From Schmidtea polychroa (Eukaryota): 64,000 bases of DNA. Below the pieces are notes generated by a model. The model made no database searches, was not told the origin of the DNA, and saw only the letters and a program-made list of their open reading frames with translations. The position numbers and the translations under genes were made by a program. Positions 25,004 through 64,000 of the stretch are shown here, in pieces (position 1 is the stretch's first letter; each line of letters opens with the position of its first letter). The stretch covers positions 114,514,001 through 114,578,000 of the forward strand of contig CM097886.1 of NCBI GenBank assembly GCA_044892525.1. Reading direction: 5' to 3'.

Positions 25004-25165
25004 TCTTAATTTATATGTACTTTCTCAATCCTTATCCAATTTTAATTTCATATTATTTACACCCATCGTTATATAATATTGATACCGCGCTTATATAAAG
25101 ATATAATACTGTTATATACATAAACTATACTTACTTTTTACATTTATATACAGTCATAACCCTTT

Positions 25166-25522
25166 CTATTTCTGTGGATTTGGAGGGCGCTGGGCATTCC
25201 AGGCCTCCACCCACTGTTCTTGTTTGATATTATTCGGTCGTTTTACCCGATGTCGAAAATTTCTGATTCGGGTCATTTCCAATTCTCCGCGATGTCGTCT
25301 ATCTTTGATTATTTTTATTGTTCCCCCCGTTATGATTAAAAGTGCCCCTGTTATTATTATCCCACTGATCCACATCATCTGTTTTATGCTTATAATTTCT
25401 GGTTTTTCTTTGTTTGTTATTGTTGATATTGTCTCCGTACTTTCCTCGTTTCCTCTTTTGTCTTTTCTTTTCATCATCTCACGTATCCTTGTTATCTCCT
25501 CGTCCATACCCTCCTTGGCCAT
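25166..25522 (-). CDS. Accessory 118-aa single-pass membrane protein
   Basis: Hydrophobic stretch MMWISGIIITGALLIITGGTI followed by basic KIIKDRRHR. Confidence 0.55.
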   Translation of the reverse strand: MAKEGMDEEITRIREMMKRKDKRGNEESTETISTITNKEKPEIISIKQMMWISGIIITGALLIITGGTIKIIKDRRHRGELEMTRIRNFRHRVKRPNNIKQEQWVEAWNAQRPPNPQK

Positions 25523-25951
25523 TTTTTAAATTTTTTCCATTTCTTCCGCTGACACGTAATTGTCCTGGTTTTTCTCATTGGTTCTCTTACGCTTTTCTTC
25601 CTCATCTTTTTCATCGTTAAATTTTCTTTTCTTCCCTCTTTTTCCCGGTTATCGTCGACATTCCCTTTTTGATTCGTTCCTCCAGATACAAACCGTGTAT
25701 TCCTTTGGGGGTTGTTGCTGTGTTACATATTGTAAACAGTCTTCACCCGGTCTTAATCTTGAAATACAGACTTTGTGTTCTTTTCTTGGTTGGAGTTGTG
25801 TTATCACTACCTCCCCTCCTTTTTCTAGGTGTACCTCTTTCCCTTTAACTGTTGTGTTCTCTTCCCGTTTCGCTGTCGGTATGCCTCCTGTATTCTTACT
25901 TCCGTTATTGGTTCCGTATCCTCGTTTATCAATACTTGTTTCTGATATGCT

Positions 25952-31900: not shown

Positions 31901-32495
31901 TCGACTGGGTGTATATCCGGTTGTAGGGTTTTCTTGGTCGAATTTCGGTATGTTGTGGGTTCTTCTTGTTCCTTGTGATACTCCTCTAGAATGGTTTATA
32001 GATCGACTTCTTCTGAGTCGTTCTAATTCGTCTCCTGAAAATAATACGTCTCCTGGCTTACTCGAGGATCTGAGATTTGGTTTCTCCGTGATTCCTTCTT
32101 ACGCTTTCTATCGTCTCTTGTGGACTTCTCTGTGATTAGCGGCTGCTGGATTGGGTGAATTCGGTTCTGACTGTGTGTCCTTCGAAGAATATTCTATACG
32201 ACTCTGCAATTAATATCCCGAGGAGCTTTATAAATCCTTGGTTGATTGCCGTTAATACAACAAGACTGAATATATCGTGAATTCGTTCGAAGTTGGAGAT
32301 ATTGTTGTCGGTGTCGTCTTCCGTTTCTGGAGTCTTCCGGTTACTGTATTCTTCTGTGCGGGTTCTGAATTGATTTATTCCTGGTTGATTACCGATTTCT
32401 TCGAATTCCTTTTGTGCAGGTTCTGGATTGGCTTGGGTGACTGGATTGGTTTGGTATCTAAAATGATAAAATGATCTCGTGTTGCATCTGCTCAC
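25952..32495 (-). pseudogene. Copy 1 polyprotein: Gag, CCHC x3, Ubl x3, Bcl-2-like, N-terminal part of Env
   Basis: ORFs starting 31771, 31240, 27160 and 26614 are one frame broken only by point stops at 31292, 27194 and 26669 (sense codons in copy 2). Zinc knuckles at 30866-31018. Homology to copy 2 stops at ~26010 (after IDRAVG), where the rest of env and all of pol are deleted. The N-terminus probably starts near 32495 with a frameshift. Confidence 0.88.
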
Positions 32496-33759: not shown

Positions 33760-34245
33760 TCAATCGCCATAATAAACCATATGGGTCTCCTTTATCTCGT
33801 GTCTACATATAGTACATCGATTTAGATTGTTCACGCACTCTTCACAGTGACTGAGGTGTCCGCATGGCAAGAACAGTACTCGTATAGGACGAAGTTTACA
33901 AGATAGACAAGTTCGGATTACGGCGACCGTCTCTTGTATCTTTTGCTCGATGGCGTCTGATATGGTGTTTAACCGGTCTTTTATTCGCTGATATTTTAAA
34001 TTCAAGGCTGGATGGTTCAATCTTTCTTGGTACCACTGGTATATTATTTCGAGATTTATTTTTTCGTCTGGGCGATTTAAACCTATGGCCAGTAACATGT
34101 GGGTAGGTACAACTAGTACTTGTTCTATGGTTTGTAGTTGTATGCTCCTAATTCTCTCTCTTTTTTGCGTAAGGGTCTGTAGGGGATCGCTGTCTATATC
34201 GATGAAGTTGGTTAATCGTTGGATCTGTTCGGTGAATTCGGCCAT
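33760..34245 (-). CDS. IAP/MDM2-type C-terminal RING protein (161 aa), copy 1
   Basis: CLSCKLRPIRVLFLPCGHLSHCEECVNNLNRCTICRHEIKETHMVYYGD. Intact, with an orthologue at 52301-52786. Confidence 0.88.
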   Translation of the reverse strand: MAEFTEQIQRLTNFIDIDSDPLQTLTQKRERIRSIQLQTIEQVLVVPTHMLLAIGLNRPDEKINLEIIYQWYQERLNHPALNLKYQRIKDRLNTISDAIEQKIQETVAVIRTCLSCKLRPIRVLFLPCGHLSHCEECVNNLNRCTICRHEIKETHMVYYGD

Positions 34246-34536
34246 GTCTATTAGGAAAGAAAATATGTTATTAATATACTACCAAGTGATGGTGATTTTA
34301 TTAAAAATTTAAGTTGTTATTGGTTATTCAATTTCGCCTTCTTTTAGATTTACTTTATTTGTTTTTAGTTTTATTATTATCTAAACCCTTATTTTTATTT
34401 ACCCCATTTATGCAATAATTCGATAGATTCTCATCGATTCGCATTCGTCAATCAATCAAACTCAGTACATCTCGGTGAATTCCGCACCAATCACTAGAAA
34501 TTCAATTGTTAGGCCTTTCCATTTATGCGTAGATAT

Positions 34537-34554: not shown

Positions 34555-35029
34555 AAAATTATGCTGGGGTACCACTCGATTGAATCTGTTACTTCTTTTC
34601 GCTAAGAGATGATTGTCCACCTCGTATGTTATCCGTTTCGCCCGTTCAACTCGCAGTGGGACCCCACATAACTTGTCCTCCAACATAGTGCCCGTGAATT
34701 GCTCCACGTTGGTACTGCACTATGCAGGCGAGACGCCAGCAAGCAGGTGAGCTTCTGCCTTAAAACTACTCCTTGCTGAGGCCTCGACTTTTCACTTACG
34801 ACTGCCGATAGAAGAGCTTACGTCCGTTCTCAGCACACAACCGCCTAGCGAAATTTCGTTGAGCACAGATTGGCATTTGTTTACTGGATCTCTAAAGTTT
34901 TTAGCTCGACGTCCTTAATCATAATCAGACTAATCTTGAAAGGGAAAGAAAACAAAATAAACAGTAAGATTTATTGATCACCATATTATAACACAGAACT
35001 TAACCATGCACATTTCAATGTTTTTAATA

Positions 35030-35483
35030 GGCAGGGGAGATATCACAACAAAGGTAGATGGAGTCTTTGGACGTCATTATGAACGCTCACCGTGGCCTCC
35101 TACTTCTCCCATTCCGTATCGGCGAGTAACTCATCCAAATCAGAGAACTCGGAGGCGTTCTCCTCCCAGGTTACTCCGGTGGCTGAAATAACTCGTGCTG
35201 GGGGTCCGGTAGTTAGGTCTACGGTCGCGTGAGAATCGTTAATGCTAGTTGGATTTGGCAGGGGAGATATCACAACAAAGGTAGATGGAGTCTTTGGACG
35301 TCATTATGAACGCTCACCGTGGCCTCCTACTTCTCCCATTCCGTATCGGCGAGTAACTCGTCCAAATCAAAGAACTCGGAGGCGTTCTCCTCCCAGGTTA
35401 CTCCGGTTGCTGAAATAACTCGTGCTGGGGGTCCGGTAGTTAGGTCTACGGTCGCGTGAGAATCGTTAATGCTAGTTGGATTT
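35030..35483. repeat. 227-bp tandem duplication inside the 5' LTR
   Basis: 35030-35256 is repeated at 35257-35483. The 3' LTR has a single copy. It duplicates the 3' end of the LTR ORF. Confidence 0.93.
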
Positions 35484-36076
35484 TCCGTTGAAGAGACGTT
35501 CGGCTTTGTAGATGCACGCTCACGCTGTCTCTTTTTGCGTTCAGCACGTGACAGTTGCCGACGCTTAGGCTTTGAGGAGCTGCTGATGACGAGAGGCAGG
35601 GCGGAGGTAGAAACGATAGATGGAGTCGTTTTGCTGTTGCCGGTAAAGATCATGTCGGCTGGCTTGGGCGAGAGCTGAGTCTCTATGCACCCTCTGCAAG
35701 GCTTTCTAGACGGTGACGACGACTTTGACGAGGTGTCGTGGTGCCTTGGGAAGAGCTGATCGGCTTCGCCTATAGGAATTTGGACAATTTGCCGGGTGGC
35801 GGCTGCCTGGATATAGACTTTGTGCAGCGCCTCAGACTGCTCCTTGATTAGACTTCTCTGGGCACGGCTCTCAGAGATTAGAGCGTCCCGGCAATGCTCA
35901 CTACGATGGAGCTTCTTCTGGGTCTCTTTCATCTGAGCGGGACTGAACCACGTCCCCTCTAGCTCATCGATCTTTCTTTTGTATTTCCCAATCTGGGTTT
36001 GTAAGTCCTTGATGATGGCGTTTTTGTCCGAGCAAGAAAAACAAGGACGTAACGCAGGCTTGGCAGTTGGTATCAT
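35327..36076 (-). CDS. LTR-encoded ~250-aa protein (CxxC, coiled coil, basic NLS-like segment, acidic tail)
   Basis: Intact ORF; ATG at 36076 follows the acceptor tttgcctttatag. The N-terminal ~85 aa differ from copy 2 at only about 7 residues despite many third-position changes. Confidence 0.82.
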   Translation of the reverse strand: MIPTAKPALRPCFSCSDKNAIIKDLQTQIGKYKRKIDELEGTWFSPAQMKETQKKLHRSEHCRDALISESRAQRSLIKEQSEALHKVYIQAAATRQIVQIPIGEADQLFPRHHDTSSKSSSPSRKPCRGCIETQLSPKPADMIFTGNSKTTPSIVSTSALPLVISSSSKPKRRQLSRAERKKRQRERASTKPNVSSTENPTSINDSHATVDLTTGPPARVISATGVTWEENASEFFDLDELLADTEWEK

Positions 36077-38112
36077 GATAACTATAAAGGCAAATGTGAG
36101 ATGTGGAACATACAAGATTCAATTTTAAAATATGGACTCGATTAGCTGGCTATTCGCGGGTATTCACCGAACACCAAGAAAAAACTTATTTTAACATCCA
36201 AATCTGTTACTTAGATTCTTACAGCAAAATTCAACTTAAACATATATTGTCGATTTGACGAATGCGAAAAAAAAGGATGGTGAAATTTCCCATGTTGGTG
36301 AAACGATTTTAATTCGCAGCTCTCCCTTTGATTTATTCAATTAAGTAGTTACGCAAGTAAGTTCATTGGAGATTGATATTCAATTACTACCCTGGGCTCG
36401 TATTCACCATTATCCATTTCAAAATTCCTATGTCGTTATTTAAAGAATTTGTTTATTTCCATTCAAACACTCGGTGTTATCGTTTACAATTTGCAGTGAT
36501 TAGTTATTATGCGTCACGTGCAAGGATCGCACACTCTATTTACCATGAGTATGTACAGCGGCGACGATTATCCTTATCACTTAGTTCACTACGCACGATC
36601 GTCGCTTGACCCGAACGGAGATTGATAGTAGATAATCGATCCTGCGAATTCTAATATCTGTTGTTATCATTGGTTGCTCACACTACTTAGCCTGTCATGA
36701 TATGAAAATCTACCGGTCTAACATCTGCGAATCGACGGCTTACGAGATTCACTAGCCAACATACTTATCTACTAGCATTCGTCGGGGTGAGAATTCAAAT
36801 GCATACGTCCTGTGTCAGAACAGTTGTGTGTTAATTATGCAATCTCCCATTCATATTCGGTACAGATGTCACCAACCATGAGTGGATATCGTTCAACAGG
36901 AGTTTGTGCACTAGCTCGGGTGACGTAGAAAGCTTTGGATATTATCTCACTGTCCGCAAATTCACGCTCGTCTACAATGTTGGAATTAATTGCTGTAATT
37001 CGAAAATTCCTTTATGTTGTGATGCTTCAAAATAAAAGAAAATCAAATGATATCCTCGAGCCGTGTTCCCGGGAAGATATTCCGAATGCGATGCAGAATG
37101 GACACTTATTCAGATAGTAGGAATTTATTTCCTAACTGTATAAAATAAAATGTTAAAGTAACTGTAGTCTTCCGTTTTAATCCATTTTCGTATTATGTCA
37201 CTTATCTGAATGCCAAAAAACATAAATTCTCGACTCTGGCTTATTAGCGAAATTTGTTCATGAAATTTAATGCTGGAGTGTCGTAGATGAGTCTACTCTA
37301 AGTGTGGTAGTGAAGATCAAGATTCGGATTTTCAGATAAGTGGGACTTTCGAATGATGAGATGTGACGTTGTGAAATGATGAGAAGTGTAAAATTTGCAT
37401 TTTCCCCAATCACTGTGAAGCATATACATGACTCCCCAAAATTTCGGAATCTGTTACTGAAATCAATAAGATATCCTTCTATGAATTTTATGTCACCTTC
37501 AGCGATTGGACCCGTGAAGAAGCCTCCACATTTCGGCCCAATCTAGCTGCGTGATTGAAATACTCCATGTCCACCGGCTGAGCTCCCGAAGGCACCTCAC
37601 GCCATGACATGGAGTATCTCAACTCCACGTGTCTCATTAAATTTAATTCAATCAAATAATACTTTATGAAATAAAAACATCCAAATTGTTCGATAATAAT
37701 AAATTTATTATAAAATAAAAATGTACTTTAACCAAATAAATCGTTTACCTTATTAAATCATTTATGGGACCAAACGAAGAGAAAATTAAAACTAATTTAA
37801 GAAAACTTTTAATCATTCATTAAATAGGTGCAATTACCATTAACTTCAAAGAGATGTAAAAAAATCATAATAAATAGAATCCTGCTTACGCTTGAGTTAG
37901 GCTGAATCGCAATAATGCTCGTGGTCAAAATGAATCGGCTGTCTCTGGTTCTTTAAATCCTTCTGGTTATATCTCAGTTACTAGTTGAATTGAATTATCG
38001 AGTCGCTCGTGAGTTTAGGTTCGCTAATATTTCTGATGCTGGAATTAGTCCTGGTAAGCCGTAGTCGTTTTCCTATGAAAATTTTGATTAAACAGTAGTT
38101 GGTAGAATTGGC

Positions 38113-38199
38113 ACTTACCTATGAAAATTTTGATTAAACAGTAATTTTAATGATTTTGGTGCCCGTTTATATAGTAAGTTCTTATTTGTGCGGACCAAT
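38113..38199 (-). promoter_or_regulatory. LTR promoter (inverted CCAAT, TATA) and first splice donor
   Basis: ATTGG at 38199-38195, TATATAAA at 38173-38166 and AG|GTAAGT at 38118, with the same order and similar spacing as in copy 2. Confidence 0.7.
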
Positions 38200-38519
38200 C
38201 AAAATTGAGTACCGCTTATTTTATTAAATTAATTTGCTTTTTTCCTATTTCTTTGGATATTTTACTTATTTTTCTATTTTTATTATATCTTTTATTTATT
38301 TCTTAAATTCCTTAATATTTATTGCATTTTACACTATTTCTCGTCATTCAATTGTCTTATTTAATTTTTTCTTATATTTTTTGTTTTAATTCTTATTTCC
38401 TAATTATTGTTTTTCTTATATCTTATTCTATTTTATTCTTATTTTGGTTTATTTTATTTTTATTTTTATTTAGTTATCCCTAACCTAATTTCCGAGGTGT
38501 TTTCCGATTCAGCCCAACA

Positions 38520-47969: not shown

Positions 47970-48300
47970 TGTTGGGCTGAATCGAAGGGTAGCTGGGAAA
48001 TTAGGTCGAATTTAACTAAAGTAAAAATAAGAAATAAAATAAATAGATTGACGAATAAAATAGAATAGAACATAAGAAAAACAATAATTAGAAATAAGAA
48101 TTAAAACAAAAAAATATATAAAAATAAGAAAAATTAAAATAGGACAATAGAATGACAGAAAATAACGCAAAATATAATAAATAATAAGGAAATTAAGGAA
48201 AATAAATAAAAACATAATTTTAATAAAGAAAATAAGAAGAAATAACTCTAAAACAAGGAAAATAAATTAAATTAATAAAATTAAGCGGTACTCAATTCTG

Positions 48301-48388
48301 ATTGGTCCGCGCAAACAAAAAATTAATATATAAGCAGGCATTAAAATCATAATAATTACAGTTAATCTAACCACCTCAATAGGTAAGT
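48301..48388 (+). promoter_or_regulatory. LTR promoter and splice donor
   Basis: ATTGG at 48301-48305, TATATAA at 48327-48333 and AG|GTAAGT at 48383. Confidence 0.7.
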
Positions 48389-50662
48389 AAAGTTTAAAAT
48401 AATCACAGTTAATCTAACCACCTCAATAGATCCATTCTACGACGAAACCGCAATTAAACAATCAATCCACAGCAACTCACGAGGACTATTCCGGAATCCA
48501 AGAAATTTCAGCTGAATCTAGATAATTTCGAACATTTATTACTTCGACACAGTACCCCTTTTCGACTCAGCCTATACCTCTATTAAACACTCGGTAAGGA
48601 TCTTTTGATTTCATAATTTGAATTTTAAAGTAATAGTTATGCATATGATTTAATTATAATTTTAATTTAAAGAACTTGTTTTCTTTTCGTTTGATTTCGA
48701 ATACTTGGTGTAATTTAACGATTTAGTATTTAACAATAAATGATTTGCTATGAATGATTGATTTCTAGGAATTATTGACTTTTATGAACTGTTTTAATGA
48801 GTTATTATTTAATGCCATTCAAATTTTCGAGAAACGTGGCGTTGATATACTCTAGTGTCATGGTGTGAGGTGCCTTCGGGAGCTCCACCGGTGGGCCTAG
48901 GGTATTTCAATCACGCAGCTGATTCGGGCCGTAATGTGGGGGCTTCCTCACGGGTCCGTCGCTGAAGGTGCGACTAAATCCTATAGGAAAATGTTGCCAG
49001 AAAATTGGTAGTCGTATAGCGATGGAAAATAGAGATGTAGGAAGAAACGTTCAGAGAGTTTTTATGTATTCGCGCAGTGATTGAGGGTGTCACACTATCG
49101 TCTCAAGATATCGTTTCTACTAAGCCCAAATTTCCTCTATCGCTCTAAAGCTCTATGTAGGTTGCTCATCGAGAGTCGTTCAAATGCTATAGGTGACATA
49201 TCTTCGATGCTCGTATGTTTCACTCGAAATTTATACCTACTATGTTTTATGGCCTTCCGTGTTATTATTTTCCTCGTCTACGTGTTCTCTCAAAGATGTA
49301 GCTGCAGGGGATTACAGAAAATAAGTAGTCTCGGATGAGCGTTAGAATTCCATGAACAAGTTGTCTCGCATAAAATTTTGAATTACGTAAAACGGGTTAC
49401 TTCAACTATTTTTGAATTGTATAAAATGATTTACTTCAATTGATTTTAGAATTATATAAAGGGATTAACTTCCACAAATTTTTCTAATTACATAAACCGG
49501 TTAGTGCCAAATAATCTCAAGAGTAAAACGAAATCAAATCGAGTCAAAAAATATATTTTTTTTTTACAAACCAATCTAACATGATAATCCTTACCTAGTA
49601 AATATAAATTACCCGTGTTTCATGGAGTTGATAATCCGGCGAGGATAGGTAGGAAATCTCCAAAATATCGGGAACGGATCAATAAACCGCATTTGAGGAG
49701 TTGAGAAGTTCCCCCTGGGGGGCAAATTATATCCAACTCTTGCGATACCGAGAATCATAATTTTTCCAGCATTTCCGTGAGAATTAGTATGACATCATCA
49801 TGAGCAAGGAAATGTGAGCATCTGTGCAGTGGGTTGATCGAGATAGTAGCCAGAGAACATGCCAGCATGTAAACAGTTGAGGGCACCAGTTAGTCATTAG
49901 GAGTGGAATTAAGTATGAGAAATAAAAACTTGCATACGTCACCCGTTTTCAGACACACTACAGTAGCTAATCACGGTGTGTAGATTCACACCGACTTGTA
50001 CTCATAACAAACCAGACCGGACGTGTCAGCTGGAATTTTTGGGTTATCAAATTAAATCACTCGCAGTCATTAGATTCCCACTGGTCGGAACTAATAGCCA
50101 ACTGTCAGACTGATTTTGTCTACTTAGTAGGATTAATTTAGTTATTATCTCATGTTGAATAATTTGTCGCCTATCATAAATAAATAATTAAAAATTTTTT
50201 TTTAATGTCTTCCCGTTCATCATAAATGAACTAATTAAGAATAATTTATGGATTTCTATTCACCCTAAATAATTAATCTAAAATTAATCGACCTACGTAC
50301 AGGATACATTCATCGAAACGATTTGTTAGGAAAAGTCGGCAATGTAATTCAACTCTCTTCAAACGTTAATTACTAACTTCAAGCAATTTAGATAACCGTA
50401 GTTTCCTCGACCTAGAATTCCTCTCACCAGTAGTAATACCTCTCCTTACTTGTGCAAAATCGTGCTAGACTGATTTATTTTCTTATAATTAATGACCCAA
50501 AGGGAACGAGGACCCATAGCGCAGTTGAATTTCTTTGGCTGATACACCCATTCTTGTCTATGAAACCAACTATGATCAGTAAAATATAAATGTGACCAGA
50601 CGACGACCTTCTAATTGATTTGATTTGTTGTTCATTTCCATCTTTTCTTGCAGTCACCCAAG

Positions 50663-51406
50663 ATGTTACCCAATTCCAAGACCATTCTCAGACCTTGTTT
50701 CTCTTGTTCAGACAAGAATTCAATCATCAAGGATCTGCAGGCCCAAATCGGAAAGTACAAGAGAAAAATAGACGAGTTAGAGGGGACATGGTTTAGTCCT
50801 ACCCAGATGAAAGAGGCTCAGAAGAAGCTGCACCGCAGCGAGCACTGTCGAGATGCGCTAATTTCCGAAAGTCGGGCGCAGAGAAGCCTAATAAAGGAGC
50901 AGTCGGAGGCGCTGCACAAGTTATACGTCCAAGCAGCAACCACTAGGAGAATCGCGAAGATCCCAATTAATGAAGCCAGTAATCTTTTTCCAGCGCACCA
51001 CGAGATCTCGGGCGGGCCTTCATCTCCACTTGGGAAGTCCTGCCATGGGTGCGTGGAGACCGAGCTCTCTCCCAGTGGTCCAGACGTTGTATTCACCGGA
51101 ACTAATAAAGTGCAGCCAAACACCGCATCGTCCTCAATCGTGCAAACCCCAACAGCTTCAAAACCTAAACGTCGGCAACTGTCGCGCGCCGAACGAAAAC
51201 GAAAGCAACGAGAGCGGGCTTCCATCAAACGGATTCTACCATCAACCGTCACCCCAGTCGACGGCAACAGCAATCCAATAGTAGTCGATCTAACGACCGG
51301 AATCTCAGGGCGAGTCATCTCCGCCGCCGGGGTAACATGGGAAGAAAACGCCGCCGAATTCTTTGATTTAAACGAGTTACTCGCCGACTCGGAGTGGGAA
51401 AAATGA
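50663..51406 (+). CDS. LTR-encoded 247-aa protein, copy 2
   Basis: Intact ORF after the acceptor tcttttcttgcag (50653), with AATAAA at 51543-51548. Homologous to 35327-36076. Confidence 0.82.
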   Translation: MLPNSKTILRPCFSCSDKNSIIKDLQAQIGKYKRKIDELEGTWFSPTQMKEAQKKLHRSEHCRDALISESRAQRSLIKEQSEALHKLYVQAATTRRIAKIPINEASNLFPAHHEISGGPSSPLGKSCHGCVETELSPSGPDVVFTGTNKVQPNTASSSIVQTPTASKPKRRQLSRAERKRKQRERASIKRILPSTVTPVDGNSNPIVVDLTTGISGRVISAAGVTWEENAAEFFDLNELLADSEWEK

Positions 51407-51974
51407 GAATTGCTCCGTAAACTGGCCTCATCTTCTAGAGATACCTGGACATCTTCTGACATCATTGTTTACCCTTGTGTTTTCCCTATTCTTAGGAATT
51501 TTGGTATATAAGTGTTCAATGTACTTGTATAATAATTCTGACAATAAACCATTCTCGTCTATATATGTGTTTTTGTTTATCTTAAAATAGTCGATCTGAA
51601 ATTGGTGAATAACATTGAGAGTCGTAGAAAATGAGGAGCATTAGTCAGTTGGCAACCCCAGCTAGGAACCTTGCGATGGGGTGATGGAATGATTAGACGT
51701 AAGTCCTTCTATCGGCAGTCAGGGTTGGGAAGTCGACGCCTCAGTAAGGAGTAGTCCGAAGGAGCTGGCTCACCTGCTTACTGGCGTCTCGCCGGCATAG
51801 CACAGTTCCAACGTGAAGCAATTCACGGGTGCTATGTTGGAATGTAGGTTATGTGCGGGTCCTGCTCGGCGATGACAAAACGAAGGACGAGCGAAATCGA
51901 TGTGGGCATTCATCCTCTAGACTGAAAGCTGCACTAAAAGGGGTCATCCGAGTAGCTACCCGCAACATAATTTT

Positions 51975-51992
51975 TGGGGGCTCAGCCGGGAT
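51975..51992 (+). promoter_or_regulatory. Primer binding site, tRNA-Pro type
   Basis: TGGGGGCTCAGCCGGGAT. Confidence 0.88.
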
Positions 51993-52300
51993 TTAGATTG
52001 AAATTTCCATTGACTAGTGCGAACTTGACTGGGATTTATTATTGAAATTTTGTCGAATAGTGTGAATTCACCGGGATTAGTGATTTTAATTGACTGGCGA
52101 ATGCAAATTGACTAATGCTTATCGAATCTTATTATAAAATCACGATTAGAAAATAATAAAATTAAAGATATAAATAAAGTAACTTTAATAATGGAGAAAT
52201 AAGATAAAAGTAAAATAAAGTATAACGATTTAAAAGGAAAATGTTTGATGAAACAACCACTAATTAGTTATGTATGACTAAAACATTTTTTTTAATAGAC

Positions 52301-52786
52301 ATGACGGAATTCGTGGACCAGATACAACAACTAATCAACTTCATAAACATCGAGAATGACTCCCTTAAAACGCTGACACAAAAGAGAGAAAGAATTAACA
52401 TCATACTACTCCAAGCAATCGGGCAAACCCCAGTCGTCCCCAACCACATGTTATTAGCCGCAGGACTAAGTCACCCAGATGGGAAGATAAACCCTGAAAC
52501 CGTGTATCAATGGTATCAAGAGAGATTGAACCACCCAGCATTAAATCTTGATTATCAACGTATAAAAGATCCATTAAGTACCATATCAGATACAATCGAG
52601 CGAAAAATACAAGAAAAACTGACCCTACTACGAACTTGTCTTGCTTGTAAACTTCGTCCTATTCGCGTACTGTTCTTGCCGTGTGGACACCTCAGTCACT
52701 GCGAAGAATGTGTGAACAACTTAAAACGATGCACGATATGTAAGAATGAGATAAAAGAAACTCATATGGTTTATTATGGTGAATGA
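52301..52786 (+). CDS. IAP/MDM2-type RING protein, copy 2
   Basis: Intact; CLACKLRPIRVLFLPCGHLSHCEEC...CTIC...HMVYYGE. Preceded by ttttaatag|acATG. Confidence 0.88.
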   Translation: MTEFVDQIQQLINFINIENDSLKTLTQKRERINIILLQAIGQTPVVPNHMLLAAGLSHPDGKINPETVYQWYQERLNHPALNLDYQRIKDPLSTISDTIERKIQEKLTLLRTCLACKLRPIRVLFLPCGHLSHCEECVNNLKRCTICKNEIKETHMVYYGE

Positions 52787-53427
52787 ATAGTTAAAGATAC
52801 AATAACATCTATGAACATTGAATTAATACGGGCGATTGAATGAGAATAAGTGTAATTGATGTGTGGAATTTTATTAAAGCTTCAATTTTTATTTTTATGA
52901 CGAATAAAATTTTGTTACGAACTGAGTAATTTATGGCTTTTAATTCTATTTTATAACTTTGTTTTCGAGTCAAGCGAAAGGAAAACTAAACTAACGTGGA
53001 ATTAGTCCCAATATAGGCTGTAAGGGTACAAACCGAGCCACCTTCGGGCGGTACGTTCTATCATACGAAAAAACCAATTGGGAGGGGATAACCGATCAAC
53101 CCAAGTAAGAAGCGTAGGGCGGGGTACCATCGCATATGATGAGAAGTTTCTACGACATGACTGATCACCATGCCAATGTAGAAATGGATCATCGCGATCG
53201 TCGTGCGTTTTGAGCAAGGGGGGAAAGGGGAAACACTCTCAAGGGTAAAGATCAAGTCGACAAATTAAAAGTAGAGACAGAGAAAATGATAATTCAGGGT
53301 AAAAGAGGAAAAGAGAAGTAGAAGCATGCAGAGTGGGGAATATTAAAGCCGAGCTGTTGAATAGTCCAGCCGGTCAAGGAAAATGAAAACTGAGCTGTGA
53401 AAAGTCCAGCCAGTTCGGAGATATTAA

Positions 53428-53649
53428 GATCGAGTTGTTGAATAGTCCAACCGATCAGAAGGAAGAAGATTGAGCTGTTGAATAGTGCCAGCCAGTCGTA
53501 AGATCGAGTTGTTGAATAGTCCAACCGATCAGAAGGAAGAAGATTGAGCTGTTGAATAGTGCCAGCCAGTCGTAAGATCGAGTTGTTGAATAGTCCAACC
53601 GATCAGAAGGAAGAAGATTGAGCTGTTGAATAGTGCCAGCCAGTCGTAA
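53428..53649. repeat. 74-bp tandem repeat x3 (each a dimer of ~37-bp subunits) in the 5' leader
   Basis: Units start at 53428, 53502 and 53576. Degenerate subunits extend upstream to ~53350. Confidence 0.93.
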
Positions 53650-53974
53650 AGGCCTAGAAAAGCGAGAGATAGCAGTTAAGCTACAATGAGATAATATTTA
53701 AATTAATAGTGAAATGGAATATTAAAGCTAGCTAGAAACAAATTGAATGTAATTACGAAAATTTGAGTTTAGAGAGGAAATAAACGAGCTCGTGGAAAGG
53801 ATGATAGGATTATAATGAAAAAGGAAGGGGAAGAAGGAAATGAATTAAAGAGATAATGGAAAATAAAGAATAGGTGAAATGATGATAATGAGTAAAGAGG
53901 AAAGTAACTAACTAATTAAAGGGATCCCAGTGAAGTAGAGAAACTCTACGAAATATTTTTGTTTTTGGTTAAAT

Positions 53975-56900
53975 CGGGCGAACTAGCAAATAGGAAACAA
54001 AGAGCGAACGAATCGATAACATTATATGCCAGTGAATTACGAAGATTAGCGAAGAAAGCAATGAATGGGAAATTACTCGAGGAAAATCTGATCGGCTATT
54101 TCATAGAGGGATTACGCCGAGAGGATGTAAGAGCCTCAGTAGGTTGTCAAATGTGCAAAACGTTAGAGGAAGCCATAGACTGGGCTACAAGATGCGAGCT
54201 CCACCTTCCAGCTCAAATGAATATTATGCAAGAGGATGGGAGGATAGCGACAGCAATAGCGAAAGCGGATAACGGAGATAACAACAATCAGGAACCGAAA
54301 ATGAATCAATTTATACCAGGAGCGCATCAAATTTTCAAACCACCACAAGGACGATCAAATGGGAATAATGGTAATCGTAACAACTTGAATAATGAGAACA
54401 ATTTTAATAATCGACGAAATATGAACGATAACAAGCAGTGCCGAACATGTGGTAAACCAGGACACTGGGACAGAGATTGTTATAGAAACGCAAATTGTAA
54501 TCGTTGCGGACGGCGTGGACATACGGAAAATAGATGCCAGTTGAAAGGTTGTTTTAACTGTGGTCAGCCAGGTCACATCTCCAGAGACTGCCGAGAAAGG
54601 GGCCAACCACAACGACCACCACAACGAAATACTAATTACATGTCGAATCCGCAACGACAAAGTAACCCTAGTGAAGGAAAACAAATGAACGTTATGCAGG
54701 AAATCTCACAAATGAAACAGATGATGCAACAAATGATGAGACCAAGGCAAGAACCAGCACCACAACAAACCCAGAATATACGTATGATGAGGAGTACCGA
54801 AAATCTCAATAGTTATGAAGTACATCAACATGTACAAGAATGGCAAAGACTACAGGCCGAGGAAGAGAGGATAAAACAAGAACGCAACCAACAACGACAA
54901 GAACAACCATTGCGAATAAATATGATGAAGTTAGTAAAAGACATGAAAAGCCAGTACTGCTACAATTACGGGAAAAACCCAAGGGTAGTACCCATGACTG
55001 AACCAGAGAAGGTAAAAGAAACAACAACGGAAATGAAAACCGAGAATTCAACCACGATCTTAAAAGGGAACCAGAGAATTCAGAAAATATTCTGGAAAAA
55101 GATAAAAGATAAAATCGAAAAAGAACATAATAAAGCGAAAACCGAGACAGAAGATGAAAATAACAAGAGCAAGGAACAAGCCAGTCAACCAAACCGCCAA
55201 ATGTTACAAGAACTGGAATCTGAGGAAACAACGATATTCAAAAATAAAAAACTAAAGAGAGTACCTAGGATGAGAAATTTGCGAATCAACATGATGAAAA
55301 GGACGAAAGGTACGTCGTCCTCAGACGAAGACTATGTGAGCAGTTTGGGTGGAGAAATACTACAGCTAAATGAAATAAGCGAACCTCCAAAAGGGGAAAT
55401 CGAAGAAGAAGAAGGCGAAAGCGAGATAACCAGCGGAAGTGAAGACGAGGATATAGAAATAAAGTTGAGAAAAGAGAGGGAGGAAGCGATAAAACAAGTA
55501 GCTGAAATACTCCCAGTAGTAGTGAGGAACCAAGAGTTCATCGATATAATACCATTCAGACGATTCGTGCAAAAAGTGATGAAATTGGAAAGAAACGAGA
55601 AAGATTTAATACCAAACGAGAAAAAATCAATTATAAAAAAATATATGGAAAAAATGAAGCAGGCCGATACCACGCGGTATGTAATAAAAATCGGAACGAG
55701 TATAGGACTTGAAAGAATGTGGATTAAAAATACAGTCACCGACGAACTTTTCGATTGGATACGAGAACATTTGGGAAGTTCGAGAAAGAAAGAATATCTG
55801 TATCAATACCAAGGAGAACAGATCAAACCAGATATGCACTTAGTGGATGCACTAATATGGCCAGGAGAAACGCAAATACTGAAGTTGCACAAAGAAAAAC
55901 AACCAGCTAACCTGTACGATTGGGCTAAAGATGCCAAGGCGGAATATGATTTTAATATCAAATTGAAATTAGAACAAATAAAGCAATGTACTCTGAGACG
56001 AAACCTGGACAAGCTGATCAAACAAATTCAAGAACAAGTGGAAGACAACTGGGATTTACTCATCACCAGACGAGCCCCAGCCATGTACTAACTAATGAGC
56101 CGGTTGCGAGATACAGAATTGCTCCGAATGAGTGATTGGAGAACCATAAATTTGATTCCCAAATATGGAAGGTTAAAAGAAACCCAGCCGCAGAGGTTGG
56201 AAATAACCATATGGTTACCGAACGAAGAGAAACGACGAATAAAAATAAGCAATCAGAGTACAGTGGATGATTTGGTATCAAAGATAAACCAAGAGATAAC
56301 GGAAAAGGTACGTAGCGAAAGTAGTGATGGTATGGTGGATGATGTAGTCATGATGTACGATAAAATAATATTACGAGCGGAAGACGACACCTCGTTGAGC
56401 GAAATGGGTATGTGAGACGATCATCAGATAATCAGGATAGTACCAATGGATGAATTTCGAACAAGAGATGTAACGTATCAAAAAGAAATACGAGACCGGA
56501 TGAAAACGTTATATCAAAAATCTACAGAAATAATTGAAATTCACCAACGATGGTTAAAAGAAAAGGAACTACAAGGAAAAATCACGAAACTAAGCACCAG
56601 ATCCTGCAGACGAACCCCATGGGAAAGAGTGTGGAATACAGAAAATAAGGAATGGGAAATCCGGAAAGGAATCTTCGTAGAAACAGACATTGGGGAGACA
56701 GAAAGTGAATCGGAGGAAGAAGAAGAGGAACCCCCAGAATATGAAGAGGAAGCAAGGAGACAGATCTCAGATGATGAAAGCGAGACGGACGTCACGTCAG
56801 AAAGCGAAAATGAAGCGAGACATATTCATGCAATGCGGAAAAAGGAACGTGAATATGCCGATATGGACGGCGAGGAAGCGACAGAAGCAAGAGAACGAGA

Positions 56901-58528
56901 AGAGAAAGAAAGATATAAACACTTAGGCGATATCTTACAATGGGAGCGAAAAATCAAAAACGTCAGGTAGTAGCATTGGCTAATATCATCTTAAAGACAT
57001 CAGAAAATATCCACAATCTGAGAGAAATGGCGAAAGTAATAGAGGAATACCGGCAATATAATGAATGGTATCCAGAACAGCTAGAACAAATTATTCGAAA
57101 ATGGAGAAATCAAGAGTGGGCACAAGACACCCAGGAGAGGTATCACATCCGAATCAAGTATCCGGACAAGAGCATTGAAGAACTAGAAGTGCATCCAACA
57201 ACGAAAATTAGAGAATTAAAAAAGAAATTAGCATATGAAACTCCATTCCATCTGCAACTATTCGGAAAATCACTAGACGATAATGTAGACGTCGGAATAA
57301 CACCCATGAGATTAGAAGAGACTAATGTGTTAACAATGGCGGAAACGTTGGGAAAACCGTTGAAAAGGAAAAGCAAAATTAATAAACCAACAAAAGGTAG
57401 TTTGAGTACTCCAAGTCCAAACAAAGCCCCAAGTAAATCTAATGAAACTGAAGAAGTTGAAGAGATTATCCTCGAAGATAGTGGCGACGAACCAGGAGAA
57501 AGATCACCGCTATTAGTGAGATGGCCAACAGGAGCCGAAATATGGACCAACAACCAACCATCAACAAGTTATCAACAACCAACGAAACTGAACACCAAGG
57601 AAATCGTCGACAATACTACGGAAACCGAAACGGATGAACAATTCCAGAAGCAAAGAGAACCAACAAAAATAACACCGGAAGGTCAAACTGATAAAATAAT
57701 AGATGAGTGGAATGAGTGGCTGAGAAATAACGATAGCTCATTACCCAGAACGGATAACGAAAGAAATCCGAATTACGAAAATACCAGAGAAGCTGGAACG
57801 ATGATGGAAAAACGGGCAAAAGGAAGACCTAAGAAACAAGGAGAGAAATCTGAGTTCAAAACCAAGGAACAAGTAAAACAAGAACAAGGACAAGTTCGAT
57901 TGGAAAAGTTAGATAAAATAGTATGGGATCTAAAAGAAGCTCAACCAACGATCGAAAGAGGAGAAAAATGGATACGAGAATTGATCAAAGATATGTTAAT
58001 AATAACAAATCCACAACTTAGACGCTTGTGGCAACGGAAAGTAGCCAGTGTAGAAGCTAGACAATTATGGCACATCGTATCGGGGATAATCCCAAAGCTA
58101 ATCAAAGAAAAAACGAAAACTACCAAAACGGATTGGGATGAAACCAAGAGAGTGATTGTACAGCTCACGACAAATGCAAATGATGACGAACATCATCTAG
58201 TGGTAATCACTTATTTGATGTATAATTTGATGGGATTAGCTGCAAGGAAAATACCTAATAAACAGTTCGCAAATCACGTAGAAATGACCGTGTCAATCAT
58301 AGAAAACACTATTGAACCCCATATTATCCGTGCCGGAGGATGGAAAAGACTTATACAAACGCCACGAAAAAATGAGCAAGAAAGGTCGATGCAAGTTAGA
58401 TTGAAAAAGCTGTTAAATGAACTAGAATGGGAACTACCGATGAAAGATCCAGCAAGCAGAAAAGCATCAATAAATTCGTTAATGATGACTATGATGATAT
58501 GGATGTTGTGCACAAGTGGAGCAACGGG
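53975..58528 (+). pseudogene. Copy 2 Gag, CCHC x3, Ubl x3, Bcl-2-like region (Gag N-terminus deleted)
   Basis: Zinc knuckles at 54439-54591. Stops at 56089 and 56413 and a frameshift at ~56940. A deletion of roughly 1.3 kb relative to copy 1 lies at ~53975. Confidence 0.88.
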
Positions 58529-60345
58529 TTTTACCATCTACGATTGTGATAATATGATAATGAGAGATAAATACTCATTGAGAGATATAGAAGAATGCAG
58601 ACAAGCATCACCCAACAAATTGGACATAGTAAAAACAAAAGTTACCTACCATGTATACCAAGAATCAGATTTCATCAGAACGCAAGCAAGAGAATGCGTT
58701 GTATCAAAAAAGGTACTCGCGTATTATTGCGGGCAATATTCGTATTCAACTCTCATACTACCCGGTCTAGATAAAGAAATCGTATCAATACAACGAGAAG
58801 ACTGTAAAGAGCTATTTAGAACCGGAGCGCTAAAAATGCATAACGGAGTGACGATACACGGACAAACTGGAATGATTAAAACCGAAAGTGTTTACGTATC
58901 CGGAAAAGTAAAGTCATCAGATGGGTCATGTAACGGAGGTACGTATACGATCCGAGGCGAGGTAATATCGGGAGTAGTAGTGATCGAGTCCTATACGGTT
59001 GAATTAAAAGAATATGAAGCGCAATTTGACGCAAATAATTACCAAATGAAGACCAACCCGGCATGTAGGGCTACAGAAAACGTATGCAGGACAGGAGTGT
59101 CAACTATAATCTATGAAGCTAACACGCAAAAATGCCGACTCCAACTGTTAAAAAGTGCTTTGTTCAATGAAGTAAAAGGAGAAATTTATGAAAACGAAAA
59201 CGACGAAGATGGAAACGAAAGAGTGAGAATGCGAAATGGAAAACCAATGCCACCATCTCCCAGAGAAAAAAGACTCTCGACGCAGAAAACACCAACAGCA
59301 TTAATTACCGACGATCCAGATCTAGGTATGAGATTTATCAAAGAGAAAGAAACCACCAAATGCGACAGTATAGTATATAAAACCAATTACGCTGGTATCT
59401 ATATGTCAAGACAAATAATCGACAGAGCAGTGGGAAAGATAGCAACGGAGGACGTAAAACTATACTTATATGCAAATAATAAAATGGATTTTTTTATTTC
59501 ATCGTGGACAAACGACCCTACAAAAAGTATATTACGATCTGATACAAAACGATTGTTCATTGAATAAAGAAATACTGAAAACAAAGCTAGCTATTGCGAT
59601 AACGCACCCAGATAACACGATGCCATCACTCCCATTACCAGACGGACATTTTGGTAGAATGGTAGGAAAAGTGATGTACACATACCAGTGTACCAAGACG
59701 TATGCACGAATGCCAGAAAAATCCATACTACCCGAAAAGAGATGTGCAAATGAATTAGAAATCCGCTATAAAGGACAAAATCGATTCGTTTCTACCCAAA
59801 TCTCTTTAACTGTTCTAATGCATACGGACCATTGTATGAAAGACCCGATGGGAAATGGATGATGTTACCGGGAAAAACCATATCCGAGGAGCCCAAGAAA
59901 TTTGGATTAATAGAACTCGCCACAGAGCTGGATTTCAAACCTATAGACGTGTCAAACGGTGGTATGTATTCCCCAGAAGATTTAGAAACAGCTCGGCTTA
60001 ACGTATTATTCCCAGCAAGACGAGAATCTATTTTGTCCAATATGGTAACAATAACTGGGGGAACGAATTACCAAATAGGCCCAAACTATGAACTACTGCT
60101 GTCACCAGACCATTTCCAACAAGCAACCTCAAATATGATGAAAGCAATGTGGGGAAGATTCTTAGTTTTTGGACAAATGATGGCCGGAATATTGGGGATC
60201 ATACTCATAATTCAGATCGTCAGAGTAATACTAACACAAATGTTAGCTTGTTTTGATATATACAAGCGGGAAAAGAAAGTTAACTGGAAAATGATAGTAG
60301 GCTTTCTACCATTTTTAGCTAAAACCATGGTATTACATGGTCACT
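58480..60345 (+). pseudogene. env: Envelope glycoprotein, class III (chuvirus G / herpes gB-like) type; two frameshifts
   Basis: Signal-like LMMTMMIWMLCTSGATG followed by FTIYDC...YSL..IEEC...YYCG.YSY...EDC...DGSC.G, a Cys pattern typical of chuvirus-like glycoproteins. TM segment [25 protein letters not shown] at ~60158-60245. Frameshifts at ~59490 and ~59800. Confidence 0.75.
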
Positions 60346-60839
60346 CAAAAGACATTCATCGGATAAAGCGATTGATCAAAATACTAACAAAGATTAAAGG
60401 AACCGACGAAGAAGTAGGCAGACGATTCCGGAAAGTAATGTACGATGAAGCAACAAGACGACAATTGAAAAAGAATAAGCCAAAATTTTTGGACCGATTC
60501 AGAAGTCAATCATCTAACAGCGATAGTGACGACGATGATAACGGGAACAATAAATGTCTATATCCAAACAGAAACCCAAACGAAAAACCAATGGAAACAG
60601 CACCGTATTGGGAAAAGGAAAAGACAAACACCTGGATCGCCAACGGAAGCTATATACCACCGGATATCGTGGGACCACAAGCCGCTTTGACCATGACACA
60701 GAATATGTATCCGCAATTACCGAGTCAACCCGGGATGCATTATATGCCAACACGACGTACCAAAAGTGTAGATCAAGCAGATGACGTAAGAACAATAGCA
60801 GAGATGAGTTTACCTGGAGGTCCAGCAGTAACAGTTATG

Positions 60840-63800
60840 ATTCAAATCAATGGTAAAGAAACCAATGCTATGATAGACACCGGAGCTAATGTATCAGCAA
60901 TAGCGATTAATCAAATTCCCAGTAAGCACTGGAAGGATATCGAATCAACAACAATCCACATCATAGCATGTAGTAAAGAAACAGTAGATGTGGTCGGAAG
61001 ATGGTGGACTACATTGAGATACCAGGACAACGAAATTGAAACGTATTTGGCAGTAATACCAAAACTTAGCGTACCAGGCATAATCGGAACGGATTTGATG
61101 CCAGAATTATTAAAAGAAGTGGTAATTGACTTAACAACCATGTGCCTAAAAGACAGAACAGGCAGAATATGCAAAATGAATGCCATAATCCGATGTCCAG
61201 AGAAAATTGTAGTACCAGCAAAATCGCAGATGATTTGTCAAATAAAAGTGGATACGGGTATGGAAGGAGAAGTTGTCTTCGAACCAAGTAAATCATTTGA
61301 AAAGCGACGAGAGTTACCCCTCGCCAGAGAAATAATAACAATAAACCCAGAAGGAGTGATACCGATCAACATCACAAATTTTGAAGAGGAAGACAAAATC
61401 ATCTATGAGAATGAAAAATTGGGAAGATTGACCCCAATGATGGACATAGAATTACCGAAAGTGACCAACGAGATGATCAAAGACGATGAATTATGGACAA
61501 TAGATAGTATGTTGTTGACGAATGATGAAAAGAAAAAATTGCACCGATTATTAGTAGAATATAAGGATATATTCGCCATCTCGGACCTAGATTTGGGTAC
61601 ATGTGATGTTACCCTGCATGCGATACCATTAATAGATGAAACTCCAATTGCGTTAAGACCATATAAACTAGCGGAAATGCAAAAAGGAATAGCTGAAGCA
61701 GAAGTACAAAAGATGTTAGACGCAAAAGTGATCGAACCAAGTTGCTCACCTTGGCAATTCCCAGTGGTCATGGTGAAAAAGAAAGATGGCACCCAACGAT
61801 TCTGTATCGATTATCGAAAGTTGAACGCAGTAACCAAGAGAGATACCTACCCATTGCCAATGAAATGTTACTCATGTTGCAAGGGGCAGCATATTTTACT
61901 TCTTTAGATTTAAAAAGTGGATACTGGCAAATTAAAGTCAAAGATGAGGACAAAGAGAAAACGGCTTTCACGTTGGGACGAGATCTATATCAGTTCAGAA
62001 AAATGCCATTCGGACTGACCAACGCACCAGCATCGTTTCAAAGGTGTATGAACTTTGTCACTCATGGAATCAAACAATGTATGGTATATATTGATGATTT
62101 GTTAATCTATTCAGCGACATTTGAACAACATCTGGAGGATATCCGAAATGTATTTATTCGATTACGACAATGGAAACTCAAGCTCAAACCGTCAAAATGC
62201 GACTGGTCAAAGGAAAAGGTCACGTTTTTGGGACACATAGTGTCAGCTAAAGGAAAGGAGCCAGATCCAAGAAACATTGAGAAAATAAAAACATGTCCAG
62301 CACCGAAAACTGTCACCCAAGTTCAGGAATTTCTAGGATTATGCGGATACTATCGCAAATTTATCAAAAATTATGCAGGAATTGCAAAACCAATCCAGGA
62401 ATTAGTAAAGAAAGACATTTCGTTCATTTGGGGGAAGGAACAACAAGAGGCGTTTGAAACGCTGAGAGACAAACTAATCGAAGCACCTATCCTCGTACAC
62501 CCAGATTTCAAGAAACCATTTCTATTAGCAACGGATGCAAGCGGGTACGCGGCAGGCGCGATTCTGGGACAATTAGACGACGAAGGTAAAGAAAGAGTAA
62601 TTGGATATTACAGTCGAACATTCAAAAAGCACGAGAAGAACTATTCGGTAACAGAACGAGAAGCATTGGCTATAATACAAGCAATCAAACATTTTCGATA
62701 TTTGTTATGGGGACATGAGATATGTATAACCACAGATCATCAACCATTAGTGTGGCTAGGGCAACATAAAGAAGCGTCCAGTAGACTAATGAGATGGGCA
62801 ATGCAGCTACAAGAGTATTCACCGTTCATAAAATTCAAAGCGGGAAGAGCGAATGCAAACGCCGACTGTATGTCAAGGTTTATTTTTCCAGATTTGGTAG
62901 ATCCAGAAATGCAACGTATATGCCTGATGGTAGCAGAAGACCTAGATTTCTGCCAATTACGAAAAGACCAACAAGAAGACGCAGAACTGAAACAAATTAT
63001 CGATTATGTAAAAACAGGAAAGACGGAGGTATATGCGAAAGACCAAAAATTAAAAGAACATATGGATAAACACCGACACCGATATATCATAGAGAAAGAT
63101 TGGTTGCTGATAATGGATGGGGAAAAACGATTAATGTGTATACCGGAAAACCGACGGAAAGAGTTACTAACGCAATACCACGATGGGAGATTGGGAGGAC
63201 ATATGTCATCAAAAAAGACGTTAGCAAGAATGAAACAAAAATATTTCTGGCCTACCCTAACGGAAGACGTAACCGAATGGGTGAAAAACTGCATAACCTG
63301 TGCAACAAGGAAAAACACTGGATCGAAATGGAAAGCACCTTTGACGCCAATGCCGGTACCAATAGAGCCGATGACAATGATATCAATGGATGTAGTTGGT
63401 CCATTGCCAGAATCGGATAAAGGAAACGTTTATATTTTAGTGATTACAGACTTTCTCACAAAATTTCCAGAAGCATTCGCGATGCCAGACCAAAAAGCTA
63501 AAACAATCGCAAAAATCTTGGTCGAAGAGATATGTTGCCGTTACGGGACACCGAAGCAAATCTTGACTGATCAAGGAACTAATTTTATGAGTGAAATAAT
63601 GAGTGAGGTAACCAATTACTTCAAAATCGCAAAATTGAGAACATCACCGTATCATCCTCAAACCAATGGGATGACGGAAAGATTTAATGGAACACTTATA
63701 CAAATGTTATCAAACTACGTCGACCGTCACCAACGAGATTGGGACGAATATATAAACCTATGTCTTATGGCGTACAGAATGTCGATTCACGCATCAACGA

Positions 63801-64000
63801 AAATGAGCCCATTCAAATTAATGTACGGAAGAGAATGTAACATGCCAATGGACCTGGAATACCAACCACCGATATCGCAATACATGGAGATAGATGATTA
63901 TGTTACGAAATTCAAGGAAAGAATGCAGGAGATTTGGGAAACTGCGGGATTAAACATCAAGTTCTACCAGGAAAGTTATAAAGATTTACACGATCGAAAG
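60840..64000 (+). CDS. pol: Pol: aspartic protease, RT, RNase H, integrase (one frameshift at ~61860; then open to the window end)
   Basis: MIDTGA (D at 60876); [14 protein letters not shown] and YIDD (62087-62098); TDAS (62534); HHCC (63179-63301); integrase D63389, D63569 and E63677 with D-35-E spacing. Gypsy domain order. Confidence 0.97.

Follow-up and report, generated by a model that had tools for sequence, protein, structure and literature searches.

A giant, probably Burro-type Ty3/gypsy family in Schmidtea polychroa with a shared and selectively maintained set of accessory genes

The closest described relative of the element discussed here is Burro/GYPSM1 of Schmidtea mediterranea. 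Burro is more than 30 kb long, with a first open reading frame (ORF1) of 4,873 amino acids (aa) and accessory ORFs (PMC6431247). Its domains are given as MATH_TRAF, BIR, ankyrin, BCL2-like, Ubi2/SUMO-like and dUTPase-like, its env lies in frame between BCL2 and the protease (PR), and the apoptosis and ubiquitination domains were suggested to meddle with host systems (PMC6431247). Errantiviruses with a GAG-ENV-POL order and an envelope of HSV/gB type (HSV, herpes simplex virus) have also been described from Platyhelminthes, including six S. mediterranea elements in supplements (PMC13524379). A word search of the main text of that paper finds no mention of Burro, Bcl, TRAF or ankyrin, and the accessible parts of three other papers hold nothing on such cargo (PMC11410931, PMC13238120, PMC11663942). 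Here we describe copy B, an element of Schmidtea polychroa that begins in a 64,000-nucleotide stretch of the genome (GenBank assembly GCA_044892525.1, contig CM097886.1, positions 114,514,001 to 114,578,000; “the window” below is this whole stretch, and positions count from its first letter). Copy B probably represents a young, high-copy, env-bearing Ty3/gypsy family of the Burro type known from planarians. Purifying selection acts on the family's extra genes, and these genes likely dampen host cell-death and TRAF/ubiquitin signalling during replication.

Copy B is a full-span Ty3/gypsy element of 28,551 bp that starts at position 47,970 and ends 12.5 kb beyond the window, where the flanking DNA holds its 3′ long terminal repeat (LTR; 8,523–12,520 bp past the window end). 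The LTRs are 3,998 bp each, have TG..CA ends and are 99.6–99.8% identical; they are bounded by a 4-bp target duplication (GTAT), and 4-bp duplications were likewise found in the three other copies checked. The primer-binding site is complementary to host tRNA-Pro(TGG), and Pfam places PR, reverse transcriptase (RT), RNase H (RH) and integrase (IN) in the Ty3/gypsy order within pol (Table 1). Env is a Monjiviricetes-type fusion glycoprotein (PF24664, E 1.6e-26 in copy B and E 5e-72 in another family member, copy c3), and the ORF upstream of gag has a RING domain (PF13920, E 1.2e-11). Past the window come, in order, ankyrin repeats behind IN (PF12796, E 4e-18), a second protein with signal and transmembrane (TM) segments, a 111-aa ORF downstream of the polyprotein (ORF111), a TRAF gene in a 478-aa frame that encodes a whole RING-zfTRAF-coil-MATH protein (MATH PF21355, E 3.5e-25), two coiled-coil ORFs, a TM ORF and the 3′ LTR. 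An earlier note, made from the sequence of the window, had proposed a giant Gypsy element resembling an endogenous retrovirus, with Env, LTRs of about 4 kb and a length of 26 kb or more when two copies were combined. This is borne out, and copy B alone reaches that length with no combining needed; the LTR gene, RING E3, TRAF, coiled-coil and TM modules that the note listed are all present in copy B or its continuation. Copy B itself is damaged: 1.3 kb of gag is missing, stops interrupt the frame at two places (near 56,090 and 56,414), and the frame is broken at five others (near 56,935, 59,495, 59,787, 61,850 and 1.76 kb past the window).

The family is large and many of its members keep a single long frame. 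A 601-bp probe yielded 310 candidate copies in the genome, and a search with the Bcl-2-like domain yielded 728 candidates, 150 of which were scored. The open frame is exactly 4,732 aa in 59 of these 150 and at least 4,700 aa in 65 (hand count), the length being measured from stop to stop with the first ATG about 110 codons in. Given these frames of 4,700 aa and more, gag, the ubiquitin-like (Ubl) domains, the Bcl-2-like domain, env and pol belong to one polyprotein, in the order gag, three Ubl domains, Bcl-2-like, env, PR, RT, RH, IN, ankyrin and the second membrane protein; in uninterrupted copies env sits in frame between gag and pol. The family further has seven accessory ORFs, including the RING E3 and the whole TRAF. 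The second membrane protein forms the C-terminus of the polyprotein (window equivalent 66,475–67,488; 25,100–26,018 in the other window copy, copy A), has a cysteine-containing ectodomain and belongs to no known family; one is also present in the sister family described below. A phmmer search of its ectodomain against PDB sequences returned nothing relevant, leaving the idea of an FN3-like fold as an unsupported guess, and alignment with the C-terminal membrane protein of a compact relative was uninformative.

The extra genes are common property of the family. Eighteen copies were compared: the two in the window, the best four DNA matches and twelve chosen by hand along the ranked list of Bcl-2-like matches. 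By this choice all eighteen carry the Bcl-2-like region. The three Ubl domains, the Bcl-2-like domain, the LTR ORF and the RING ORF occur in 18 of 18. Fifteen copies have TRAF, ORF111 and the second coiled-coil ORF, 14 have ankyrin repeats and a full first coiled-coil ORF, and 10 have a recognisable TM ORF. This last accessory ORF (7,650–8,303 bp past the window end in copy B) is hypervariable, with five of the 18 copies at 64% identity or more and five at 27–36%, and others have an unaligned ORF of similar size. LTR pairs are 97.7–100% identical in the 14 copies where both were compared, so these insertions are recent. Among the copies, LTR types are mixed with internal types, which suggests recombination.

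Selection on the cargo was estimated with Nei-Gojobori dN/dS (the ratio of nonsynonymous to synonymous change) between sampled copies, using pairs with dS of at least 0.15 and dropping saturated ones; the pairs are not independent, and median dS was 0.4–1.4. Median dN/dS is 0.01–0.02 for RT, RH and IN and 0.03 for env. The Bcl-2-like domain stands at 0.03 and each Ubl domain at 0.04, followed by ankyrin (0.07–0.10), RING (0.08), the LTR ORF (0.10), TRAF (0.06–0.11) and the coiled-coil ORFs (0.07–0.13), with the TM ORF highest at 0.33 (6 pairs). Because these ratios lie far below 1, the element makes use of its cargo. The accessory modules are thus both common to the copies and conserved, as the survey and the ratios together indicate, and the case in which copies do not share them, which the earlier note had named as fatal to its proposal, did not arise.

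The identity of the polyprotein modules is less direct. The earlier note's three Ubl domains and Bcl-2-like domain find partners in fold searches, while no Pfam match reaches threshold for either type and the structural models are of low confidence. The Bcl-2-like model has a predicted local distance difference test (pLDDT) score of 45; the Foldseek matches listed for it are all of the Bcl-2 family (best E 0.24, probability 0.98), and 12 Bcl-2-family chains stand among 50 VIA rows at Z 6.2–7.6, which is the chance range for helical bundles. A phmmer search against PDB sequences gave nothing relevant for this domain. Its positional homologue in the compact family matches PF00452 (E 1.1e-4) and has the GGW motif in common with it. 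HHalign against five host Bcl-2 frames gives 16% probability over 28 columns, with five control modules at 0.3% or less. The model of the Ubl stretch has a pLDDT of 40, and its listed Foldseek matches all have the ubiquitin fold (best E 0.029, probability up to 1.00), though the result does not tell the three domains apart. When the Ubl domains were searched as one joint profile, a redesigned ubiquitin was the best match (E 0.093), and the count of three rests partly on predicted secondary structure and alignment. These weak signals converge, and both assignments are likely correct. Protein databases gave no match to the Ubl3-Bcl2 stretch among 1.84 billion representatives, and a word-indexed protein search gave none for TRAF or for the Ubl3-Bcl2 stretch; these nulls are no evidence of novelty, since such collections evidently lack eukaryotic elements of this kind. 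Elsewhere in the genome there are other repeated Bcl-2-like loci (152-aa frames, and 170–180-aa frames with a stop inside the match), three of which were examined and had no Burro modules nearby, and a tandem cluster of host-type Bcl-2 genes lies on C4 near 90 Mb.

The Ubl and Bcl-2-like domains of the polyprotein could be parts of the particle (spacers, a membrane tether next to the Env signal peptide, or modules controlling the protease) and not modulators of host apoptosis, leaving only the free TRAF and RING ORFs to touch host signalling. Both kinds of domain are embedded in the Gag-Env polyprotein, match gag and env in conservation (dN/dS 0.03–0.04) and are kept in the compact family, and the Bcl-2-like domain retains mainly a BH2-like GGW motif, all of which would fit such a structural role. 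However, anti-apoptotic Bcl-2s of viruses are among the fold matches of the Bcl-2-like domain, and IAP and TRAF genes, which converge on the same pathway, are carried separately in this lineage. We hold the structural role possible, if on the unlikely side.

Much of this design is familiar from Burro. Like Burro/GYPSM1 and the Burro-like element of Dugesia tigrina, the copy B family has a single polyprotein of 4.7–5.1 thousand residues in which gag, three CCHC knuckles, predicted Ubl and BCL2-like domains and env precede pol, and it shares ankyrin repeats, MATH/TRAF, multi-kb LTRs and accessory ORFs with Burro (PMC6431247). Differences are also apparent against the available text of that account: TRAF here is a whole RING-ZF-coil-MATH gene downstream of pol, whereas in the D. 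tigrina element it is an upstream accessory ORF; three Ubl domains are predicted here and one is noted for Burro; and the second C-terminal membrane protein, the LTR ORF and the splice-like signals discussed below go unmentioned there (PMC6431247). A conserved region of about 100 aa lies between PR and RT, at the place of the Burro dUTPase-like domain (dN/dS 0.05), and gave no Pfam dUTPase match in copies A and B, c3 or the sister and compact families. A MATH domain inside the polyprotein, as in Burro1/GYPSM1, is absent from the family copies scanned (Pfam and the 18-copy survey), and Pfam finds no BIR in the scanned ORFs of copies A and B.

Both of these modules are found in a sister family in the same genome, which is about 35 kb long with LTRs of 4.75–5 kb and a 4,791-aa frame that has MATH between Ubl2 and Ubl3. 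Its separate ORFs include a TRAF (487 aa) and a BIR-RING IAP (BIR PF00653, E 9e-16), and its layout is that published for Burro1, domain for domain (PMC6431247, as far as its available text goes). RT, RH and IN of the two families are 90%, 88% and 79–81% identical and the cargo proteins 24–48%; the RING ORF of the copy B family is 29% identical to the C-terminus of the sister's BIR-RING protein. In a genome-wide Pfam search for MATH, a hand count over the best 150 matches gives 51 with a 487-aa frame around them and 6 with a 4,791-aa frame; the four of these loci that were examined all belong to the sister family. The compact relative is more distant (a 3,053-aa gag-Ubl-Bcl2-env-pol frame, RT about 50% identical). 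From these sequence comparisons we place the copy B family beside Burro1, as a sister of Burro type without a BIR gene and without MATH in its polyprotein. The suspicion of a Burro relationship voiced in the earlier note thus agrees with the published layout. The note also asked whether the cargo had been reported, and named a family and cargo already fully annotated as a ground for refutation; this is largely the case, as the cargo types and the idea of host meddling are in print in the part of the Burro account available (PMC6431247). The design itself is not a new one. The extended data of Grohme et al. 2018, Repbase or Dfam may already contain a counterpart family, the accessory ORFs and the three Ubl domains.

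The errantiviruses have the same gene order (gypsy pol, with a gB/chuvirus-like env before it) and env type as the copy B family (PMC13524379). Among the six S. mediterranea elements, the closest env is that of Smed_errantivirus_5 (about 55% identity in domain I-II, with 102 of 187 positions the same when counted by eye), and the env of the sister family resembles Smed_errantivirus_6; the copy B family is not identical to any of the six as listed in the supplements (PMC13524379).

The surroundings of copy B raise the question of where its TRAF gene came from. The window lies inside a large array of host TRAF genes (C2, ~105–124 Mb), and host TRAF-like genes with a RING-zfTRAF and a separate MATH exon flank copy B, at 45,546–46,961 of the window (minus strand) and beyond it at L002:6,611–7,228 (plus strand). 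The cargo might on this ground be passenger DNA or a local chimera, an ordinary Gypsy element having taken up host TRAF genes from the cluster around it or come to stand next to them. Yet copies on three chromosomes have the cargo enclosed by their LTRs, TRAF evolves under a dN/dS of 0.06–0.11, and the MATH domains of the element form a clade of their own (support 100/99), apart from the local array and 28% identical to the neighbouring TRAF. Local capture of a neighbouring TRAF was rejected on the copy survey and the tree, and the passenger explanation as a whole is hardly credible. In the tree (57 rows, midpoint root, host rows almost all from the 30 best Pfam loci plus a few other stretches), the element MATH clades join intron-poor host TRAFs, the best of them 39–41% identical, in an open group that has weak support and long branches.

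How the accessory genes would be expressed can be read, tentatively, from motifs around their starts. With tRNA-Pro as primer, full-length RNA would undergo reverse transcription, and its integration would leave a 4-bp duplication; the polyprotein would be cut by its own protease and by signal peptidase into Gag-Ubl-Bcl2, Env, Pol-ankyrin and a second type-I membrane protein. Spliced messages are the likely source of the accessory proteins: in them a short LTR leader, ending at a donor upstream of the primer site, would be joined to an acceptor before each ATG. A YAG occurs at most 13 nt before the ATG of the LTR ORF (27 of 27), RING (15 of 15), TRAF (15 of 15), the coiled-coil ORFs (14 of 14 and 13 of 13) and the TM ORF (4 of 5), against a background of 18% in nearby windows; as the copies are related, the fair count is six of seven ORFs. 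The sister family also has a YAG before the ATG in six of the seven ORFs looked at (two of them at a second ATG). A GTAAG donor stands 261–277 nt before the primer site in 15 of 15 5′ LTRs, with AATAAA about 150 nt upstream in 12 of them, a count that leaves out three copies with a non-matching primer motif. The simplest reading is that a short LTR leader is spliced to each accessory gene and that the LTR ORF is made from the 3′ LTR. Out of 30 bins of the 3′ part, contigs of three runs guessed to be RNA cover 30, 21 and 5, and this demonstrates neither transcription nor splicing. One joint in these contigs (4050-7637) was rejected as a splice: its short side has 23 letters, it falls at a motif repeated before two ORFs and it is not GT..AG.

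The same motifs could instead mark an operon, with the accessory cassette split by the host's spliced-leader (SL) trans-splicing and not by cis-splicing from the LTR leader. SL trans-splicing exists in flatworms, planarians included; most ATGs have an acceptor-like AG 1–2 nt ahead of them and hexamers of the form A(A/T)TAAA upstream, and the sister family has the acceptors without a matching donor. Such hexamers are, however, common in AT-rich DNA, and the canonical donor is kept in all the family LTRs counted, even across subfamilies whose LTR ORFs are 36–53% alike. An operon is therefore an improbable explanation, and cis-splicing from the LTR leader is preferred. No purine run was found before the 3′ LTR when a polypurine tract was sought, and a conserved, partly palindromic non-purine motif occupies that position (8,490–8,523 bp past the window end). 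The tRNA-Pro(TGG) genes form a tandem array of 475-bp period on C1 at about 130.9 Mb; their pattern has 2,164 matches in the genome, among which other repeats may be included.

Complex retroviruses have LTR-encoded and spliced accessory genes, such as sag of mouse mammary tumour virus (MMTV), nef of human immunodeficiency virus (HIV) and those of foamy viruses. The copy B family resembles them in having an ORF inside the LTR, and it would work like them should the predicted donor in the LTR and the acceptor of each gene be in use. Unlike them, it has a Ty3/gypsy pol, a class III-type fusion protein inside the polyprotein and host-derived TRAF/RING cargo, and it does not belong to Retroviridae. 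A bolder picture would make giant Burro elements complex retroviruses of planarians: they would spread from cell to cell with a swappable anti-death cassette, one LTR leader being spliced to seven accessory genes and TRAF, IAP and MATH being gained, lost and moved between sisters, and their hundreds of intact TRAF genes would be part of the reported planarian TRAF expansion and tune stem-cell apoptosis. We regard this as doubtful and rather unlikely.

The more modest reading, in which the cargo of a young Burro-type element would limit cell death and TRAF signalling, draws that role from domain identity, and several observations weigh against it or its parts. Purifying selection means use, not an anti-death role. 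The Bcl-2 and Ubl assignments fall below significance thresholds, with HHalign to host Bcl-2s at just 16%. As to splicing, the start of ORF111 has a YAG in only 3 of 14 copies, the second in-frame ATG was chosen for the second coiled-coil ORF, TM and ORF111, and the sister family has no GTAAG donor at the matching place (0 of 4 LTRs). In length, 28.55 kb with 4-kb LTRs falls short of the more than 30 kb quoted for Burro (PMC6431247). Finally, BURRO1 is silenced by PIWI in S. mediterranea, and in the available account its RNA interference neither changed nor rescued the smedwi-2 phenotype, which gives no support for a strong host effect (PMC8532177).

The window also contains copy A, which together with copy B makes two related LTR elements in opposite orientation with inverted arms 71–93% alike. 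Copy A is defective and runs from 38,518 to 3,838 on the minus strand. It is 86% identical to copy B over 5.5 kb of coding DNA and about 70–80% in the LTRs; the TRAF, coiled-coil and TM ORFs, which the earlier note had seen in copy A alone, are also found in the continuation of copy B, with 81.6% DNA identity to copy A. A 7.2-kb deletion removes env from its C-terminal half through to ankyrin. A non-autonomous subfamily with this deletion was rejected, the joint being spanned in 1 of 40 scored matches (copy A alone). At least two non-LTR elements of NeSL/R2 type are inserted in copy A (9,889–21,272, plus strand; 6,347–9,472, minus strand); they carry a Ulp1/C48 protease, RT and a C-terminal endonuclease-like motif, and one stretch lies inside the copy A 3′ LTR. 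An inverted copy of a related LTR, resembling a solo LTR, lies 6.7 kb beyond copy B, at L002:9,199–L003:3,187 in the flanking DNA.

Table 1. Features of copies B and A in the window
Feature	Position	Strand	Remarks
Copy B 5′ LTR	47970..51967	+	3,998 bp, TG..CA; GTAT target duplication directly before
LTR ORF, 247 aa, likely in U3, without known family	50663..51406	+	Acceptor-like YAG, 9 nt ahead of ATG
AATAAA, likely poly(A) signal	51543..51548	+	417–443 nt before primer site in 12 of 15 5′ LTRs
GTAAG(T), predicted major splice donor, 3′ part of LTR, upstream of primer site	51699..51704	+	
Primer-binding site, complementary to host tRNA-Pro(TGG)	51975..51992	+	
Upstream ORF, 161 aa, C-terminal IAP-type RING E3 without BIR	52301..52786	+	Acceptor-like TAG 2 nt before ATG
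74-bp tandem repeats, 5′ untranslated region	53340..53649	+	
Gag C-terminal part and three CCHC knuckles	53920..54620	+	gag 5′ part deleted in copy B
Ubiquitin-like domain 1 (predicted)	55669..55897	+	dN/dS 0.04
Ubiquitin-like domain 2 (predicted)	56194..56460	+	Stop inside in copy B; dN/dS 0.04
Ubiquitin-like domain 3 (predicted)	57135..57345	+	PF00240 E 0.072 in family copy c3
Bcl-2-like domain (predicted), BH2-like GGW motif	57891..58382	+	dN/dS 0.03
Env: signal segment, mononegavirus/gB-type fusion glycoprotein; TM helix ~60,153–60,263	58467..60270	+	
Pol: aspartic protease (DTG), ~100-aa conserved region, RT (YIDD), RNase H, integrase	60810..64000	+	Runs past window
Copy A 5′ LTR	34561..38518	-	227-bp internal duplication
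Copy A RING ORF	33760..34278	-	
Copy A gag-Ubl-Bcl2-env N-half	26009..32098	-	Ends at deletion joint, ~10 bp microhomology 26,009–26,018
Copy A 3′ cassette: second membrane protein end, ORF111, TRAF (23,184–24,565, frame-broken), coiled-coil ORFs	21394..26018	-	
Remnant of copy A 3′ LTR without its 5′ part, interrupted by a 2.9-kb insertion at 6,347–9,231	3838..9787	-	Target duplication TTGG

Literature searches turned up no paper that deals with splicing in Burro or with selection acting on its cargo, and selection on the cargo, its shuffling between sisters and the splice-like signals were not found in the accessible Burro literature. What the present comparison adds to the published picture is evidence of selection on every module across diverged, recently inserted subfamilies, sister families that differ by whole modules (the polyprotein MATH and the IAP), and exact predicted splice sites. 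A TRAF expansion has been reported for S. mediterranea, which the available text does not link to Burro (PMC6109357), and counts of planarian TRAF/MATH genes may include genes borne by elements. With the splice sites and modules specified, both the proposed mode of expression and the proposed anti-death role can be put to a direct test in a regeneration model.

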